DNA of 64,000 bases from Rhodoferax sp. OV413 (lineage in GTDB: Bacteria; Pseudomonadota; Gammaproteobacteria; Burkholderiales; Burkholderiaceae_C). Location of the stretch: positions 13,730-77,729 of the forward strand of contig CAMAWD010000007.1 of the NCBI GenBank assembly GCA_945861785.1. Reading direction: 5' to 3'. Made by a program: the position numbers and the translations under genes. Positions 39,760 through 53,666 of the stretch are shown here, in pieces. The notes under the pieces were generated by a model. It saw only the letters and a list, made by a program, of their open reading frames with translations, was not told where the DNA came from and did not search any database. Each line of letters begins with the position of its first letter. The first letter of the stretch is position 1.

Positions 39760-41292
39760 TCAGACCTCCGCCCGGATCGGGATGGTGCGTTTCTTCTCAC
39801 TGCCAAACAGGCTGGTTTCCGACGTGCCCTCGGAGCAGCCATTGCCGAAGCTGAAGCCGCAGCCGCCACGCACGTTGAAGGTGTTCTCGGCGTATTCACG
39901 GTGCGTGCTGGGGATCACAAAGCGGTCCTCGTAGTTGGCGATGGCCATGACGTGGTACATCTCCTCGACCACTTCCTGGCTGATGCCCACCTGGTCGAGC
40001 ACGGCCTTGTTGATGCGCTGGTCGACATGTTTCTCGCGCTGGTAGGCGCGCATGGCCAGCATGCGTTCCAGGGCGCGGACCACGGGTGCGGTGTCGCCAG
40101 CCGTCAGCAGGTTGGCCAGGTACTTGACCGGTATGCGCAGCTGGTTCACATCCGGGATCTGGCCGTTGCTGCCGACGTGGCCGGCGTTGGCGGCAGCCGA
40201 GATCGGCGACAGCGGCGGCACATACCAGACCATCGGCAGGGTGCGGTATTCCGGGTGCAGCGGCAGGGCCACTTTCCACTCCACGGCCATCTTGTAGACC
40301 GGGCTGTTGCGCGCGGCCTCCATCCACTTGTCGGGGATGCCGTCAACACCTGCCTGCGCGATCACCGCCGGGTCGTTCGGGTCCAGGAAGATGTCGAGCT
40401 GTGCCTGGTACAGGTCGCGGTCGTGTTCGACGCTGGCGGCCTGCTGGATGCGGTCTGCGTCATACAGCAACACACCGAGGTAACGGATGCGCCCGACGCA
40501 GGTCTCGGAGCACACGGTGGGCTGGCCGGCCTCGATGCGCGGGTAGCAGAAGATGCACTTCTCGGCCTTGCCGCTCTTCCAGTTGTAGTAGATCTTCTTG
40601 TAGGGGCAACCGCTCACGCACATGCGCCAGCCGCGGCACTTGTCCTGGTCGATCAGCACGATGCCGTCTTCCTCGCGCTTGTAGATCGAGCCCGACGGGC
40701 AACTCGCCACGCAGGCCGGGTTCAGGCAGTGCTCGCACAACCGGGGCAGGTACATCATGAAGGTGTTCTCGAACTGGCCGAGCATCTCCTTTTGCATCTG
40801 CTCGAAGCCGTCGAGGTTCTTGTCCTTGCTGCGCTTGGAGAACTCGCCGCCCAGAATTTCCTCCCAGTTCGGGCCCCAGACGATCTTGTCCATCTGTTTG
40901 CCGGTGATCAGGCTGCGTGGGCGCGCTGTGGGCGTGGCCTTCATCTCGGGCGCCGACTGCAGGTGTGCGTAGTCGAAGGTGAAGGGCTCGTAGTAGTCGT
41001 CGATCTCGGGCAGGTTGGGGTTGGCGAAGATGCGCATCAGGAGTTTCCACTTGGCGCCCTGGCGCGGCTCGATCGCGCCGCTGGCCAGGCGTTGCCACCC
41101 GCCGTTCCATTTGTCCTGGTTCTCCCACTCCTTGGGGTAACCGATGCCGGGTTTGGTCTCGACGTTGTTGAACCATGCGTATTCCATGCCGGGGCGGCTG
41201 GTCCAGACGTTCTTGCAGGTCACGCTGCAGGTGTGGCAGCCGATGCATTTGTCCAGGTTCAGAACCATGCCGATCTGTGCGCGGACTTTCAT
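39760..41292 (-). CDS. narH: Respiratory nitrate reductase beta subunit
   Basis: MKVRAQIGMVLNLDKCIGCHTCSVTCK plus three further Fe-S motifs. Confidence 0.98.
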   Translation of the reverse strand: MKVRAQIGMVLNLDKCIGCHTCSVTCKNVWTSRPGMEYAWFNNVETKPGIGYPKEWENQDKWNGGWQRLASGAIEPRQGAKWKLLMRIFANPNLPEIDDYYEPFTFDYAHLQSAPEMKATPTARPRSLITGKQMDKIVWGPNWEEILGGEFSKRSKDKNLDGFEQMQKEMLGQFENTFMMYLPRLCEHCLNPACVASCPSGSIYKREEDGIVLIDQDKCRGWRMCVSGCPYKKIYYNWKSGKAEKCIFCYPRIEAGQPTVCSETCVGRIRYLGVLLYDADRIQQAASVEHDRDLYQAQLDIFLDPNDPAVIAQAGVDGIPDKWMEAARNSPVYKMAVEWKVALPLHPEYRTLPMVWYVPPLSPISAAANAGHVGSNGQIPDVNQLRIPVKYLANLLTAGDTAPVVRALERMLAMRAYQREKHVDQRINKAVLDQVGISQEVVEEMYHVMAIANYEDRFVIPSTHREYAENTFNVRGGCGFSFGNGCSEGTSETSLFGSEKKRTIPIRAEV

Positions 41293-44200
41293 GCGTTTTC
41301 TCCTTGCGCCTGGGTGGGCCGGACCAGTTCTTCACCCACTGGTGTGTCGAGCCAGTCGATCTTGACCATCTTGCGCACCACCACGAACTCGTCGCGGTTG
41401 GTGCCAATGGTCCCGTAGTAGTTGAAGCCGTAACTGAACTGCGCGTAACCGCCGATCATGTGTGTGGGCTTGAGCACGATGCGCGTCACCGAGTTGTGGA
41501 TGCCGCCGCGCGCACCGGTGATCTCCGAGCCCGGGGTGTTGACGATCTTTTCCTGGGCGTGGTACATCATGACCATGCCGGGGTTGACGCGCTGGCTCAC
41601 CACCGCCCGTGCCGCGATGGCACCGTTGATGTTGAACAGTTCGACCCAGTCGTTGTCCTCGATGCCGGCGATCTTGGCGTCGTCCTCGCTGAGCCACACG
41701 CAGGGCCCGCCGCGGCTCAGCGTGAGCATCAGCAGGTTGTCGGTGTAGGTCGAGTGGATGCCCCACTTCTGGTGCGGTGTGATGAAGTTGAGCAATATCT
41801 CCTTGTTGCCGTTGGAGCGGATGCCATGGATGCCGGCGGTGGTCTTGAGGTCCACCGGCGGGCGGTAGCTGCTGAAACCTTCGCCGAAGGCGATCATCCA
41901 GGGGTGGTCCATGTAGAACTGCTGGCGCCCGGTCAGCGTGCGCCAGGGGATCATCTCGTGCACATTGGTGTAGCCGGCGTTGTACGACACCGTCTCACTC
42001 TCGATGCCGCTCCAGGTGGGTGAGCTGATGATCTTGCGCGGCTGCGCCTGGATGTCGCGAAAGCGGATTTTCTCGTCCTCGCGGTGGATTGCCAGGTGCC
42101 TGTGGTCACGCCCGGTGATCTTGCCCAACGCCTCCCAGGCCTTCACCGCCACATGGCCGTTGGTCTCTGGCGCCAGCATCAGCACCACCTCGGCGGCGTC
42201 GATGTCGGTCTCGATCTTCGGCATGCCCCGGGTTACACCCTCGGCGGTGACCACGCCGCTGAGTTCGGCCAGTTGCCTGACTTCGGTCTGGGTGTTCCAG
42301 GCAATGCCCTTGCCGCCGTTGCCTGCCTTGTTCATCAGCGGACCCAGGGCCGTGAAGCGCTTGAACACGTTGGGGTAGTCGCGCTCCACCACCGCCATCT
42401 GCGGCGCGGTCTTGCCGGGGATCAGTTCGCACTCGCCGCGTTTCCAGTCCTTGACCTCGAACGGCTGCGCCAGTTCACCCGGGGTGTCGTGCATCAGCGG
42501 CGTGAGAACGAGTTCCTTCTCCATACCCAGATGGCCGACGCAGACTTCGCTGAACTTTTTTGCGAACCCCTTGTAGATGTCCCAGTCGCTGCGTGACTGC
42601 CAGGCCGGGTCGACCGCGGTGGAGAGCGGGTGGATGAAGGGGTGCATGTCGCTGGTGTTGAGGTCGTTCTTCTCGTACCAGGTGGCGGTGGGCAACACGA
42701 TGTCGCTGTACAGGCAGGTGGTGCTCATGCGGAAGTCGAGCGTGACCAGCAGGTCGAGCTTGCCTTCAGGGGCTTTGTCATGCCAGACCACCTCGGTCGG
42801 TTTGGCCTCCTGGCTGGCGCCGGGCCGCCCCAAGCCGGCCGCCCCCTGGGGGGAGGCGCGCAGCGCTTCGGGGGGAAATTGTTCTCCCAGGTCCTTGCCT
42901 TGCACGCCATTGCTGGTGCCCAGCAGGTGCTTGAGGAAATACTCGTGGCCCTTGCCGGACGAACCCAGCAGGTTGGAGCGCCACACGAACATGTTGCGCG
43001 GCCAGTTGGCGGGGTGGTCGGGGTCGGTGCAGCTCATCGTGAGCGAACCGTCCTTGAGCGACTTCACCGCGTAGTCCTTCGGGTCCACGCCCGCCTTGAT
43101 CGCGTCCTTGACCACCTGCAGCGGGTTGGTCTGCAGCTGCGGTGCCGACGGCAGCCAGCCCATGCGTTCGGCGCGCACGTTGTAGTCGATCATGCTGCCG
43201 GCATACATTTTTTTGTCGGCCAGTGGCGAAATGACTTCCTCCATGCCTAGCTTTTCGTAGCGCCACTGGTCGGTGTGCGCATAGAAGAAGCTGGTGCTGT
43301 TCATCTGCCGCGGCGGGCGGATCCAGTCGAGCGCAAAGGCGAGTGCAGTCCAGCCAGTCTGCGGGCGGAGTTTTTCCTGGCCGACGTAGTGCGCCCAGCC
43401 GCCGCCGCTCTTGCCGATGCAGCCGCACATCATCAGCATGTTGATGATGCCGCGGTAGTTCATGTCGCTGTGGTACCAGTGGTTCATCGCCGCGCCGATG
43501 ATGACCATCGAGCGCCCCTGGGTCTTGTCGGCGTTCTCGGCGAACTGACGCGCCACCGTGATCAGCTGCGCGCGTGGCGTACCGGTGATGCTCTCCTGCC
43601 AGGCCGGTGTGTAGGGGGTGTCGTCGTCGAAACTTTTTGCCGCCATTTCTCCCGGCAGACCGCGGGCGATGCCGTAGTTGGCCACCTGCAGGTCGAATAC
43701 GGTGGCCACCAGGGCTTCGCGCTGGTCGCCCTCCTTGCCCAGGCTGATGCGCTGTACGGGGACAGTGCGGACCAACACGTCATTGGCACTGTCGCCGTTG
43801 GTGTTGTGCTTGAAGTTCGGGGTGGCGATACCGCCGAAGTAGGGGAAACCGACTTTCGCGGTTTCCGGGTTCGGTGTTTCAGCCTCGAGCACCGACAGGC
43901 GCAGCTTGACCTCGTTGCCGTGGCGCGCTTCCTTGGCCTCCAGGTTCCACTGGCCCTGGTCGGCGCGGCCGTCCGGGCCCCAGCGGAAGCCGATGGCGCC
44001 ATTCGGCAGCACGACCTTGCCCGCGCTGTCGAACGCGACGGTCTTCCACTCCGGGTTGTTGGCCTGTCCGAGCTTGCCGTTGAAGTCGGACGCACGCACA
44101 TAGCGGTCCGGCACCATGATTTTCTCGCCGCCGGGCAGCTCGTGCTCCTTGAGCATCACCAGCATCGGCATGTCGGTGTAGCGGCGCACGTAGTCGTCGA

Positions 44201-45263
44201 AGTAGGCGCTGCGCGTGGTGCGGGCCCCCACGCCGCCTGCTGGCGGCTGCCCCCCGAGGGGGCTGGAAGAACTTGGGGCGGCCCGGCGTTCTTCCCCACC
44301 ATCAGGGAAGTAGAACTCCTTGAGGATCACATGGCCCATGGCCATGGCCACGGCGGCATCGGTGCCCTGCTTGGGGTGCATCCAGATGTCGGACAGTTTG
44401 GCCACCTCCGAGTAGTCGGGCGTGACCGCCACCGTCTTGGTGCCCTTGTAGCGCACCTCGGTGAAGAAGTGCGCGTCGGGCGTACGCGTCTGCGGCACGT
44501 TCGAACCCCAGGCGATGATGAAGCTGGAGTTGTACCAGTCGGCCGACTCCGGCACGTCGGTCTGTTCGCCCCAGACCTGCGGGCTGCTCGGTGGCAGGTC
44601 GCAGTACCAGTCGTAGAAGCTCATGCACACGCCGCCGATCAGGCTCAGGTAACGGCTGCCGGCGGCATAACTGACCATCGACATGGCCGGGATCGGCGAG
44701 AAGCCGATCACGCGGTCGGGACCGTATTTCTTGATCGTGTACACATTTGCCGCGGCGATGATCTCGTTGACTTCGTCCCAGCTCGAACGCACCATTCCGC
44801 CCAGTCCGCGGATCTTTTGGTAGTTGCGCCGCGTGGCCTCGTTCTCGACGATCGAGGCCCAGGCGTCGACCGGGTCGTGCGCCAAACGGGCTTCGCGCCA
44901 GCTCTTGAGCAGGCGACCGCGCACCATCGGGTACTTGACGCGGTTGGCGCTGTACAGGTACCAGCTGTAGCTGGCGCCGCGGGCGCAGCCGCGCGGCTCG
45001 TGGTTGGGCATGTCCCAGCGCGTGCGCGGGTAGTCGGTCTGCTGGGTTTCCCAGGTGACGATGCCGCCCTTGACGTAGATCTTCCAGGAGCAGGAGCCGG
45101 TGCAGTTCACACCGTGGGTGGAGCGCACGATTTTGTCGTGCGCCCAGCGGTTGCGGTAGGCGTCCTCCCAGGTGCGGTCTTCGCCGGTGGTGACGCCGTG
45201 GTCACCTGCGAAGCTTTCGCGGGGGGCAGAGAAGTAGTTCAGTCGATCAAGAAAGTGGCTCAT
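41289..45263 (-). CDS. narG: Respiratory nitrate reductase alpha subunit (1324 aa, with two repeat-derived in-frame insertions)
   Basis: HGVNCTGSC, PRGCARG, SFYDWYCDLPP, GGGWAHYVGQEK, TPHQKWGIHS. Confidence 0.98.
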   Translation of the reverse strand: MSHFLDRLNYFSAPRESFAGDHGVTTGEDRTWEDAYRNRWAHDKIVRSTHGVNCTGSCSWKIYVKGGIVTWETQQTDYPRTRWDMPNHEPRGCARGASYSWYLYSANRVKYPMVRGRLLKSWREARLAHDPVDAWASIVENEATRRNYQKIRGLGGMVRSSWDEVNEIIAAANVYTIKKYGPDRVIGFSPIPAMSMVSYAAGSRYLSLIGGVCMSFYDWYCDLPPSSPQVWGEQTDVPESADWYNSSFIIAWGSNVPQTRTPDAHFFTEVRYKGTKTVAVTPDYSEVAKLSDIWMHPKQGTDAAVAMAMGHVILKEFYFPDGGEERRAAPSSSSPLGGQPPAGGVGARTTRSAYFDDYVRRYTDMPMLVMLKEHELPGGEKIMVPDRYVRASDFNGKLGQANNPEWKTVAFDSAGKVVLPNGAIGFRWGPDGRADQGQWNLEAKEARHGNEVKLRLSVLEAETPNPETAKVGFPYFGGIATPNFKHNTNGDSANDVLVRTVPVQRISLGKEGDQREALVATVFDLQVANYGIARGLPGEMAAKSFDDDTPYTPAWQESITGTPRAQLITVARQFAENADKTQGRSMVIIGAAMNHWYHSDMNYRGIINMLMMCGCIGKSGGGWAHYVGQEKLRPQTGWTALAFALDWIRPPRQMNSTSFFYAHTDQWRYEKLGMEEVISPLADKKMYAGSMIDYNVRAERMGWLPSAPQLQTNPLQVVKDAIKAGVDPKDYAVKSLKDGSLTMSCTDPDHPANWPRNMFVWRSNLLGSSGKGHEYFLKHLLGTSNGVQGKDLGEQFPPEALRASPQGAAGLGRPGASQEAKPTEVVWHDKAPEGKLDLLVTLDFRMSTTCLYSDIVLPTATWYEKNDLNTSDMHPFIHPLSTAVDPAWQSRSDWDIYKGFAKKFSEVCVGHLGMEKELVLTPLMHDTPGELAQPFEVKDWKRGECELIPGKTAPQMAVVERDYPNVFKRFTALGPLMNKAGNGGKGIAWNTQTEVRQLAELSGVVTAEGVTRGMPKIETDIDAAEVVLMLAPETNGHVAVKAWEALGKITGRDHRHLAIHREDEKIRFRDIQAQPRKIISSPTWSGIESETVSYNAGYTNVHEMIPWRTLTGRQQFYMDHPWMIAFGEGFSSYRPPVDLKTTAGIHGIRSNGNKEILLNFITPHQKWGIHSTYTDNLLMLTLSRGGPCVWLSEDDAKIAGIEDNDWVELFNINGAIAARAVVSQRVNPGMVMMYHAQEKIVNTPGSEITGARGGIHNSVTRIVLKPTHMIGGYAQFSYGFNYYGTIGTNRDEFVVVRKMVKIDWLDTPVGEELVRPTQAQGENA
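42818..42876 (+). repeat. GC-rich palindromic element, copy A, antisense and in frame within narG
   Basis: CGCCGGGCCGCCCCAAG-CCGGCC-GCCCCCTGGGGGGA...TTCGGGGGG; encodes FPPEALRASPQGAAGLGRPG in NarG. Confidence 0.8.
44222..44288 (-). repeat. GC-rich palindromic element, copy B, sense and in frame within narG
   Basis: CGCCGGGCCGCCCCAAG-TTCTTCCA-GCCCCCTCGGGGGGC-A-GCCGCCAGCAGGCGGC-GTGGGGGCCC; the 63-bp core 44222-44284 equals 21 codons. Confidence 0.82.
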
Positions 45264-52994: not shown

Positions 52995-53666
52995 ATGGTC
53001 AGGATTTTGTTGATCGATGACGACGCGCAATTGGGCCCACCGCTGGCTGTGTACTTCCAGCGTTTCGAGATGGTGCTGGAGTGCGCGACCCGCCCCAGCG
53101 AAGGGCTGGCCAGGTTGCGTGGCGGCAATTTCGACGCCGCGATCCTGGACGTGATGCTGCCCGAGATGGACGGTTTTGCCCTGTGCCGTGCAATTCGCCG
53201 CGACAGCGACATCCCGATCATCATGCTGACCGCCCGCGGAGAAGTGACCGACCGCGTGGTCGGGCTGGAACTCGGGGCTGACGACTACCTGCCCAAACCA
53301 TTCGAGCCACGCGAACTCGTCGCGCGCCTTCAGACGGTGCTGCGCCGCCGCCGCGCCAGTGGCACCGGGCAGCGCCTGGTATTCGAGGGGCTGGAACTGG
53401 ACCTCGACAAACGTACGGTGCACCGGCACGGGCTGGCCGTCGAGCTGACCGGCACGGAATTCGACCTGCTTGCCATGCTGGCGCGTGATCCGGGTCGGGT
53501 GTTCACACGGGACGACATCCTGAACCACCTGCGCGGACACGAGGCCGAGCTCTACACCCGCGCCGTGGACATCGTGGTGAGCCGCCTGCGCAAGAAGCTC
53601 GAGCCGCTGGACTGCATCAAGACACTGCGCAATGCCGGTTACGCACTGGCGGTCGGCCGTGCCTGA
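52995..53666 (+). CDS. OmpR-family response regulator (CpxR-like)
   Basis: LLIDDD, LDVMLP, LELGADDYLPKPF, wHTH ..TLRNAGY. Confidence 0.95.
   Translation: MVRILLIDDDAQLGPPLAVYFQRFEMVLECATRPSEGLARLRGGNFDAAILDVMLPEMDGFALCRAIRRDSDIPIIMLTARGEVTDRVVGLELGADDYLPKPFEPRELVARLQTVLRRRRASGTGQRLVFEGLELDLDKRTVHRHGLAVELTGTEFDLLAMLARDPGRVFTRDDILNHLRGHEAELYTRAVDIVVSRLRKKLEPLDCIKTLRNAGYALAVGRA

Follow-up and report, generated by a model that had tools for sequence, protein, structure and literature searches.

The narG gene of Rhodoferax sp. OV413, recognized from its open reading frame (ORF) and translation, encodes the alpha subunit of respiratory nitrate reductase (1324 amino acids) and occupies positions 41289..45263 of the minus strand in the 64,000-nucleotide stretch analyzed here (contig CAMAWD010000007.1, positions 13,730 to 77,729; hereafter the window, to which coordinates without a contig name refer). 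This single gene carries the 17-mer CGCCGGGCCGCCCCAAG on both of its strands, which raises the question of whether the two blocks around it are a repeated protein motif or copies of a mobile nucleic acid. The blocks arose by independent insertion of the same repeated nucleic-acid element and not by duplication of a protein segment, and the family to which the repeat belongs is not new: Hot et al. (2011, BMC Genomics 12:207; PMC3110155) described it as the Beta-proteobacterial repeat element (BRE). Taken as a whole, the best explanation, to which we assign a probability of roughly 0.8, is that the narG blocks are separate insertions of the long form of BRE, spread as non-autonomous DNA and now translated as loops.

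The window contains the 17-mer exactly twice, both times within narG: on the plus strand at 42818-42834 and on the minus strand at 44272-44288; dinucleotide-preserving shuffles give an average expectation of 0.09 matches per window. As a first-pass annotation of the window had stated, the two occurrences lie on opposite strands and are read in different frames: the copy that is sense to the gene (copy B) encodes RRAAPS over the 17-mer, and the antisense copy (copy A) encodes GLGRPGA. The exact identity shown between the two copies is the 17-mer plus further short matches beyond it. Both have the same layout, an arm, the 17-mer, a complementary arm, GCCCCCT(C)GGGGGG, a second small hairpin and a G-run, and this includes the GCCCCCT(C/G)GGGGG block and G-run end seen at first pass.

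Copy A, a long-form unit of 72 nt on the plus strand (42810..42881), adds about 22-24 residues to the protein (FPPEALRASPQGAAGLGRPGASQ). Its hairpin 1 consists of the 17-nt loop (42818..42834) between arms GGCTGG (42812-42817) and CCGGCC (42835-42840), with one G-T pair; direct reading of the sequence then gives GCCCCC-T-GGGGGG (42841-42853), a small hairpin GCGC-GCA-GCGC (42856-42866), which is of the NNNC-GCA-GNNN type that covaries in the short form described below, and a terminal G-run (42870-42875). Copy B, also long-form, lies on the minus strand (44223..44297) and is a net 75-nt insertion that contributes 25 extra residues (ERRAAPSSSSPLGGQPPAGGVGART). Arms GGAAGAA (44289-44295) and TTCTTCC (44265-44271) enclose its loop (44272..44288); sequence and fold give a second hairpin, GCCCCC-TCG-GGGGGC (44249-44263), and a third, GCCGCC-AGCA-GGCGGC (44232-44247), before the terminal GTGGGGGCC (44223-44231). 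The predicted fold of copy B comprises three hairpins at -45 kcal/mol. These sizes replace the initial estimate of about 60 bp. Neither copy contains a stop codon in any of the six frames, so that part of the earlier claim of a unit that is stop-free on both strands stands; the property itself is close to what a G+C content of about 72% alone yields (66 of 78 frames are stop-free across 13 copies, and we estimate about 0.65 per frame from composition).

NarG from the window matches Escherichia coli NarG (PDB 1Q16; E = 0) over its full length except for two segments that have no E. coli counterpart. It was aligned with 13 homologs, nine of them congeneric and the remaining four drawn from other families in the order, to which it is 85-95% identical (congeners and three of the four other-family proteins) or 68% identical (the fourth). 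The 25-residue block of copy B is present in none of the 13 and is thus unique to this genome in the comparison. The 22-residue block of copy A is found in one (compared genome G005), at the same place, with about four nucleotide substitutions and no indels, and is missing from the two homologs closest to the window protein (95% and 94% identity). Alignments of filled and empty alleles give net DNA gains of 75 nt at site B and 66 nt at site A. Both sites are gaps or loops of variable length among homologs, and alignments place them near E. coli NarG residues 321-324 and 747-751. A topoisomerase III-like gene (topB) has a third intragenic site, which is filled in the genome under study (G000) and in compared genome G427, whereas at least 18 congeners have it empty; the filled allele is longer by a clean 84 nt, both stem arms included, with no duplication. 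Because the sites are empty in congeners, the blocks are insertions and not products of protein duplication, as had been proposed at first pass. The idea that stem-1 arms derive from the target site was rejected, as the empty sites at narG A, narG B and topB do not have the arms. The topB copies of G000 and G427 differ by one substitution in each stem-1 arm and both keep a helix of 6-7 bp, in different registers, so that these changes are not counted as clean covariation.

Neither of the two narG sites, nor the topB site, shows a visible target-site duplication, and the unit has no terminal inverted repeats, its ends being a stem-1 arm and GGGGGCC; both absences are new here. The suggestion that the element resembles a MITE (a miniature transposable element with inverted repeats) accordingly finds no footing at these three sites. 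Neither does the proposal that the inverted pair could seed recombination inside narG, NarG being colinear in all 13 relatives.

According to the text of Hot et al., the BRE unit is about 90 bp long (full-length copies 75-91 bp, partial copies 40-60 bp), has 69% G+C and forms tandem arrays of variable number; it occurs in Bordetella, Polaromonas sp. JS666 (29 copies), Rhodoferax, Acidovorax, Delftia, Verminephrobacter and Azoarcus, mostly between genes, with some copies wholly within coding sequences, and its function and mobility were left open (PMC3110155). A review lists the 'Betaproteobacterial repeat element (BRE)' with inserts within about nine protein genes (PMC3184786). Bordetella units from the supplementary List S1 of Hot et al. 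have the same order of parts as the long form here (for example, TTTTTTTTTGGCCGCGGGCCGCCCAAGGCAAAAAAGCCCCCTCGGGGGGCAGCAAGCCCGCACAGCGGGCGCAGCGTGGGGGTC): a stem, the GGGCCGCCC(C)AAG loop, a stem, GCCCCCTYGGGGGGCAGC, a small hairpin and GCGTGGGGGC. The sizes agree as well, the long copies here being 68-82 nt and the short ones 60-66 nt, as do the tandem arrays and, from what the BRE paper reports, the host taxa (Polaromonas, Rhodoferax, Acidovorax, Delftia, Azoarcus and Bordetella). The Bordetella loop, GCCGCGGGCCGCCCAAG, differs by a few bases, and the Bordetella stem is uniformly T/A-rich, whereas the stems here vary.

A hidden Markov model (HMM) built only from seven of the Bordetella units and searched against the whole genome placed long copies at 11 of the top 12 matches, including the first eight, with best E-values of 2.8e-5, 9.7e-4, 1.2e-3 and 4.7e-3. 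For the narG copies themselves, membership is argued in steps: copy B, which matches the HMM of the genome's own long copies (type B) at E = 6.5e-8, probably belongs to BRE through this family chain and its architecture, and copy A is linked to the family only by its exact 17-mer and architecture. Rfam contains no match over the narG copies at E <= 10, or at E <= 1 over seven 17-mer loci from other genera, most of them canonical long units. Literature searches with the element sequence and the peptide strings recovered no prior description, and a search for work on BRE later than Hot et al. found none in the literature collection consulted. The family had nonetheless been described, contrary to the first-pass view that it had not. 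The 'Bor' repeats of Bordetella (Petrillo et al. 2006; PMC1590033) may correspond to hairpin 1 alone; their consensus is given only as a figure.

The order of parts in the long form is hairpin 1 with its 17-nt loop, a GCCCCC/GGGGGC hairpin, a variable third small hairpin and a terminal G-run. The loop CGCCGGGCCGCCCCAAG is identical in every aligned copy from this genome and from other genera and families, Bordetella differing as noted, and can form an inner GGG/CCC stem. The arms around it vary from copy to copy and still pair: a set of 69 copies, of which 27 come from this genome and the other 42 from other genera, contains 52 distinct 5' stem-1 arms, and the median length of the helix next to the loop is 6 bp with the copy's own partner arm but 3 bp when partners are exchanged. 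Long copies from about 40 other taxa read arm, 17-mer, arm, GCCCCC-TYG-GGGGGC, variable hairpin, (T)GGGGGC, and the third hairpin also varies yet stays paired (CAGCTCGG/CCGAGCTG, GGGCGAG/CTCGCCC, GGCTGGGC/GCCCAGCC). Its counterpart in the short form, NNNC-GCA-GNNN, keeps its pairing through two-sided changes in 9-13 of 44 copies (GTGC/GCAC, GCCC/GGGC, ATGC/GCAT, GCTC/GAGC). These covarying changes alter the encoded peptide (RSAQHEG, RSPQGEG, RNAQHGG), so the constraint is on the nucleic acid and not on a protein motif. The three-hairpin anatomy, with a copy-variable but paired stem around an invariant loop, is new here.

In the genome (7.1 Mb in 202 contigs, 63.6% G+C) the 17-mer occurs 27 times exactly and 37 times when up to one mismatch is allowed. 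Iterated nhmmer searches identified 74 copies of a short form (type A, 60-66 nt) and 12 of the long form (type B, 68-82 nt), or 13 with the diverged narG copy A, for a family total of about 87; the two narG copies are therefore not the only ones, as the first-pass hypothesis of a mobile family had predicted. Flanks were classified by codon log-odds, with the long ORFs of this same genome as the training set. Short copies with a callable flank are co-oriented with the neighboring genes, except for one 3' flank called on the opposite strand, and are always at a gene start or gene junction, never internal to a gene. Long copies show seven sense and six antisense orientations. Two-unit tandem arrays are present on contigs C8, C21, C28, C43, C53 and C177. 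Whole units with identical stems recur at unlinked loci, which indicates that the stems belong to the copied unit.

Intragenic copies are a minority of the family (4 of about 87). Four of the 13 long copies are intragenic and in frame, in line with the earlier suggestion that the element adds peptide loops to enzymes: two in narG, one in the linker that joins the two domains of a second molybdopterin oxidoreductase and one in the topoisomerase III-like protein, which has a SWIB tail. The two outside narG (G000 C176:5689-5763 and C4:10682-10759) are both antisense and in frame, and all three antisense intragenic copies share a reading frame (…LPPEG…LGRPG…), for which chance gives about 1 in 9 with n = 3. 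Pfam searches of the encoded peptides gave no match. Molybdopterin enzymes host three of the four intragenic copies, an observation for which we offer no explanation. The presence of two of the four in one 4-kb gene is unlikely, with a rough probability of about 0.004; this double hit may reflect the tolerance of the NarG loops or local hopping.

The short form has a distinct relation to genes. Start codons are identifiable at both ends of 51 short units, of which 46 have a Shine-Dalgarno-like motif 5-15 nt before the 3' start (for example, G000 C22:52987-53050, C8:37373-37496 and C53:21904-22028, all at gene starts with their own Shine-Dalgarno-like motif and ATG). In 19 of the 51 the two starts are 60, 63 or 66 nt apart and the unit is fused in frame to the gene (for example, MSPPGRPKGEYRSAQHEGLPVS then gene); the other 32 encode a mini-ORF of about 20 codons, which ends in an ATGA or TGATG overlap with the next start codon. 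Judging from their N-termini, the downstream genes are functionally unrelated (for example, paaB, an enoyl-CoA hydratase and a transporter). At the only short-form site with an empty allele in a relative, the native gene starts ATGAGT-ACC and the filled allele has a 60-nt insert bracketed by ATGAGCAC, an 8-nt direct repeat. Either targeting to ATGAGC or survival solely of those insertions that restore a start could account for the start-codon position. This 60-66 nt start-codon form, which carries its own ribosome-binding site and ATG as the mycobacterial interspersed repetitive units (MIRUs) do, is new here; the main text of the BRE paper does not include it, nor covarying stems, empty sites or an absence of linkage to transposase genes.

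Two side observations concern this form. Just upstream of the short copy on C22, the native ribosome-binding region of paaB (…CGCAGCACGAAGGAGGCGGCATGAGC, G000 C22 ~53051-53075) closely resembles the 3' end of short units (…GCGCAGCACGAAGGT…); this region may be the remnant of an upstream unit that has decayed, or the unit's 3' end may itself derive from a gene start. At 41289-41292, narG ends in an ATGA that it shares with the start codon of the following ORF of that strand (39760-41292, 510 amino acids, presumably narH), the same type of overlap that short BRE units reproduce.

Of 401 sampled genomes of the order, 44 contain the exact 17-mer, in as many as 131 copies each; by genus, it is present in 28 of 168. 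A control search with the reversed pattern had no match in any of the 401. Counts range from 0 to 131 within one other genus. Named hosts are Hydrogenophaga, Polaromonas, Rhodoferax, Variovorax, Acidovorax, Xenophilus, Ramlibacter, Roseateles, Ideonella, Aquincola, Methylibium, Achromobacter, Pigmentiphaga, Castellaniella, Burkholderia, Zoogloea, Sulfurisoma and Thiobacillus, and every named match falls within Burkholderiales in the broad sense, Rhodocyclaceae and Thiobacillus among them. Units often stand in tandem arrays, which have periods of 60-123 nt and reach 3-5 units in other genomes. Only seven plasmid records, mostly of megaplasmids, carry a unit, and it is annotated in none of them. 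A covariance model of the short form detected 17 to at least 124 copies in each of 25 genomes of the genus and no match in 16 genomes from other families of the order.

The mechanism that we propose is as follows. BRE would spread as non-autonomous DNA, with a factor supplied in trans that recognizes the single-stranded loop of hairpin 1. Judged by gene presence, this factor would not be a Y1/RAYT transposase (RAYT, REP-associated tyrosine transposase), a reverse transcriptase or an IS110 transposase: none of Y1_Tnp/RAYT, RVT_1 and the IS110 transposase tracks BRE copy number across 19-22 genomes, a small panel in which some genomes are 90-92% complete. Integration inside genes would leave no target duplication, and slippage or unequal exchange may then multiply units locally. 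In narG the insertions would have entered two loops that already varied in length among homologs; in a gene of essential length, only insertions that keep the frame and are stop-free would survive, and each narG block is consequently now translated as a Gly/Pro/Ala-rich loop of 22-25 residues. In this genus, a shortened 60-66 nt derivative at start codons supplies its own Shine-Dalgarno sequence and ATG, and the downstream gene then either gains an in-frame extension or is coupled in translation to a 20-codon mini-ORF. The more specific proposition, that BRE is spread or used by a factor outside the RAYT/REP, insertion sequence (IS)-MITE and retroelement systems, which reads the loop as single-stranded DNA or RNA, and that the genus also evolved a start cassette (Shine-Dalgarno sequence, ATG and 20-codon leader) at dozens of genes, is put forward tentatively, as possible rather than probable.

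Several points weigh against the reading of the narG blocks as mobile BRE insertions. The insertion event itself was never caught directly, and no mobilizing enzyme was found among the families tested. A divergence of 5-10% blurs the three intragenic junctions, where a duplication of 1-3 nt would escape notice. Copy B ranks only tenth (E = 1.6) with the Bordetella-only HMM, and copy A is too diverged to pass the type-B HMM cut-off (E <= 1e-3). Finally, a loop that is invariant across families is unusual for selfish repeats and would fit a host function too, and an RNA-level role is possible given that, as reported in the BRE paper, the Bordetella unit is transcribed as small RNAs (PMC3110155).

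The rival that survives best, though we consider it unlikely, dispenses with an enzyme: units would spread by microhomology template switching or by recombination between arrays and gene starts, together with slippage, and stems would be kept paired by quasi-palindrome correction and not by selection. The frequent tandem arrays, the ATGAGCAC repeat that brackets the insert at the short-form empty-allele site with its ATGAGT-ACC native start, and the failure of all three tested enzyme families to track copy number fit such a process. Microhomology of that kind is not present at the narG and topB intragenic sites, however; identical units dispersed at unlinked loci need a transfer step, and a purely mutational process leaves the invariant loop unexplained.

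That loop, shared without change by aligned copies from many genera and several families of the order, speaks for another rival, in which BRE serves chiefly as a functional RNA or cis-regulatory module under host selection (a small RNA, an mRNA stabilizer or a translation-initiation cassette to which a conserved factor binds) and the narG copies are by-products. The co-orientation of short copies with the genes that follow them and the Shine-Dalgarno-like motif of 46 of 51 units also favor this rival, and in B. pertussis BRE overlaps and is transcribed as the small RNAs BprJ1 and BprJ2, according to the published description (PMC3110155). Against this, long copies have no orientation bias (seven sense, six antisense), copy number runs from 0 to 131 within one genus, and the genes downstream are unrelated in function. 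A partner RNA complementary to the 17-nt loop does not appear elsewhere in the genome, where the search returned only chance 12-mers in coding DNA. We regard a mainly host-selected module as improbable.

Mobilization as a REP/REPIN-type element by a RAYT (a Y1 HUH transposase), the relationship first suggested for this repeat, is very doubtful. BRE is indeed a GC-rich, hairpin-based, high-copy repeat with no target-site duplication, and the genome encodes two Y1_Tnp proteins. Neither gene is flanked by BRE, though, and across 22 genomes of known BRE load the presence of Y1_Tnp does not follow the repeat: it is missing from the BRE-rich G288 (58 copies) and from the complete genome G058 (38 copies) and present, one gene each, in four BRE-free congeners. 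No aligned copy has a GTAG/CGTC head or a REPIN doublet, and BRE stems vary between copies, while REP stems are uniform within a genome. A further repeat was observed in the genome just downstream of a Y1_Tnp ORF (3064-3381 of contig C92), where units about 17 nt long (TGACCCCAGGCTGTTTG and its variants) follow one another and a longer motif, CGCGGCAATGTCGCAATACAAGACCTGACCCC, is duplicated; these repeats look like a separate family tied to a RAYT-like gene and unrelated to BRE.

The notion that the blocks are unreal, arising from draft assembly or from low-complexity loop expansion at the protein level, is effectively refuted: the assembly is a 202-contig draft with 4.55% contamination and the peptides are Gly/Pro/Ala-rich, but copy A recurs with about four substitutions in the independent assembly G005, the ORF is intact with a strong coding signal across both sites, and the nucleotide unit reappears in other frames, on the other strand and between genes.

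Read as insertions of a non-autonomous DNA element, the narG blocks invite comparison with several known systems. The analogy with Rickettsia palindromic elements that had been drawn at first pass holds for behavior only: both are small palindromic repeats found in frame, at tolerated sites, in unrelated and often essential genes. The Rickettsia elements are set apart by their published description (PMC10969869) as AT-rich repeats of about 100-150 bp from Alphaproteobacteria, and are presumably unrelated in sequence. MIRUs (Supply et al. 1997, summarized in PMC3184786) are G+C-rich units of 40-100 bp with inverted repeats, often in tandem, that lie between operon genes. The short form of BRE, and only this form, resembles them in having a small ORF whose start and stop overlap the flanking genes, which is a functional likeness and not membership; MIRUs occur in Actinobacteria, are presumably unrelated in sequence and show tetranucleotide direct repeats at filled sites, in contrast to the ATGAGC start region of BRE.

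REP/REPIN-RAYT systems and BIMEs are, like BRE, high-copy GC-rich hairpin repeats that are long-lived in their lineages and make no target-site duplication. BRE has no GTAG/CGTC tag, doublets or flanked RAYT, its copy number is independent of Y1_Tnp, and its conserved part is the loop and not the stem. Classical MITEs (Correia/NEMIS, ERIC, RUP, BOX) share with BRE a small size, non-autonomy, dispersal and occasional intragenic positions or expression signals. They differ in that a parent IS can be traced from their terminal inverted repeats and target-site duplications, neither of which was found for BRE; the short form is bracketed by ATGAGC(AC).

For annotators and structural biologists, these results mean that BRE-derived loops of 22-28 residues are to be expected in Burkholderiales enzymes, and that 20-residue N-terminal extensions or mini-ORFs are to be expected at many gene starts, where gene callers will probably choose inconsistent starts in the presence of short BRE units. 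Presence or absence of units among close relatives, which shows recent activity in the genus, makes BRE copies usable as markers. The combination of stems that are free to vary but paired with a 17-nt loop conserved across families provides a handle for finding the partner that mobilizes or uses BRE.

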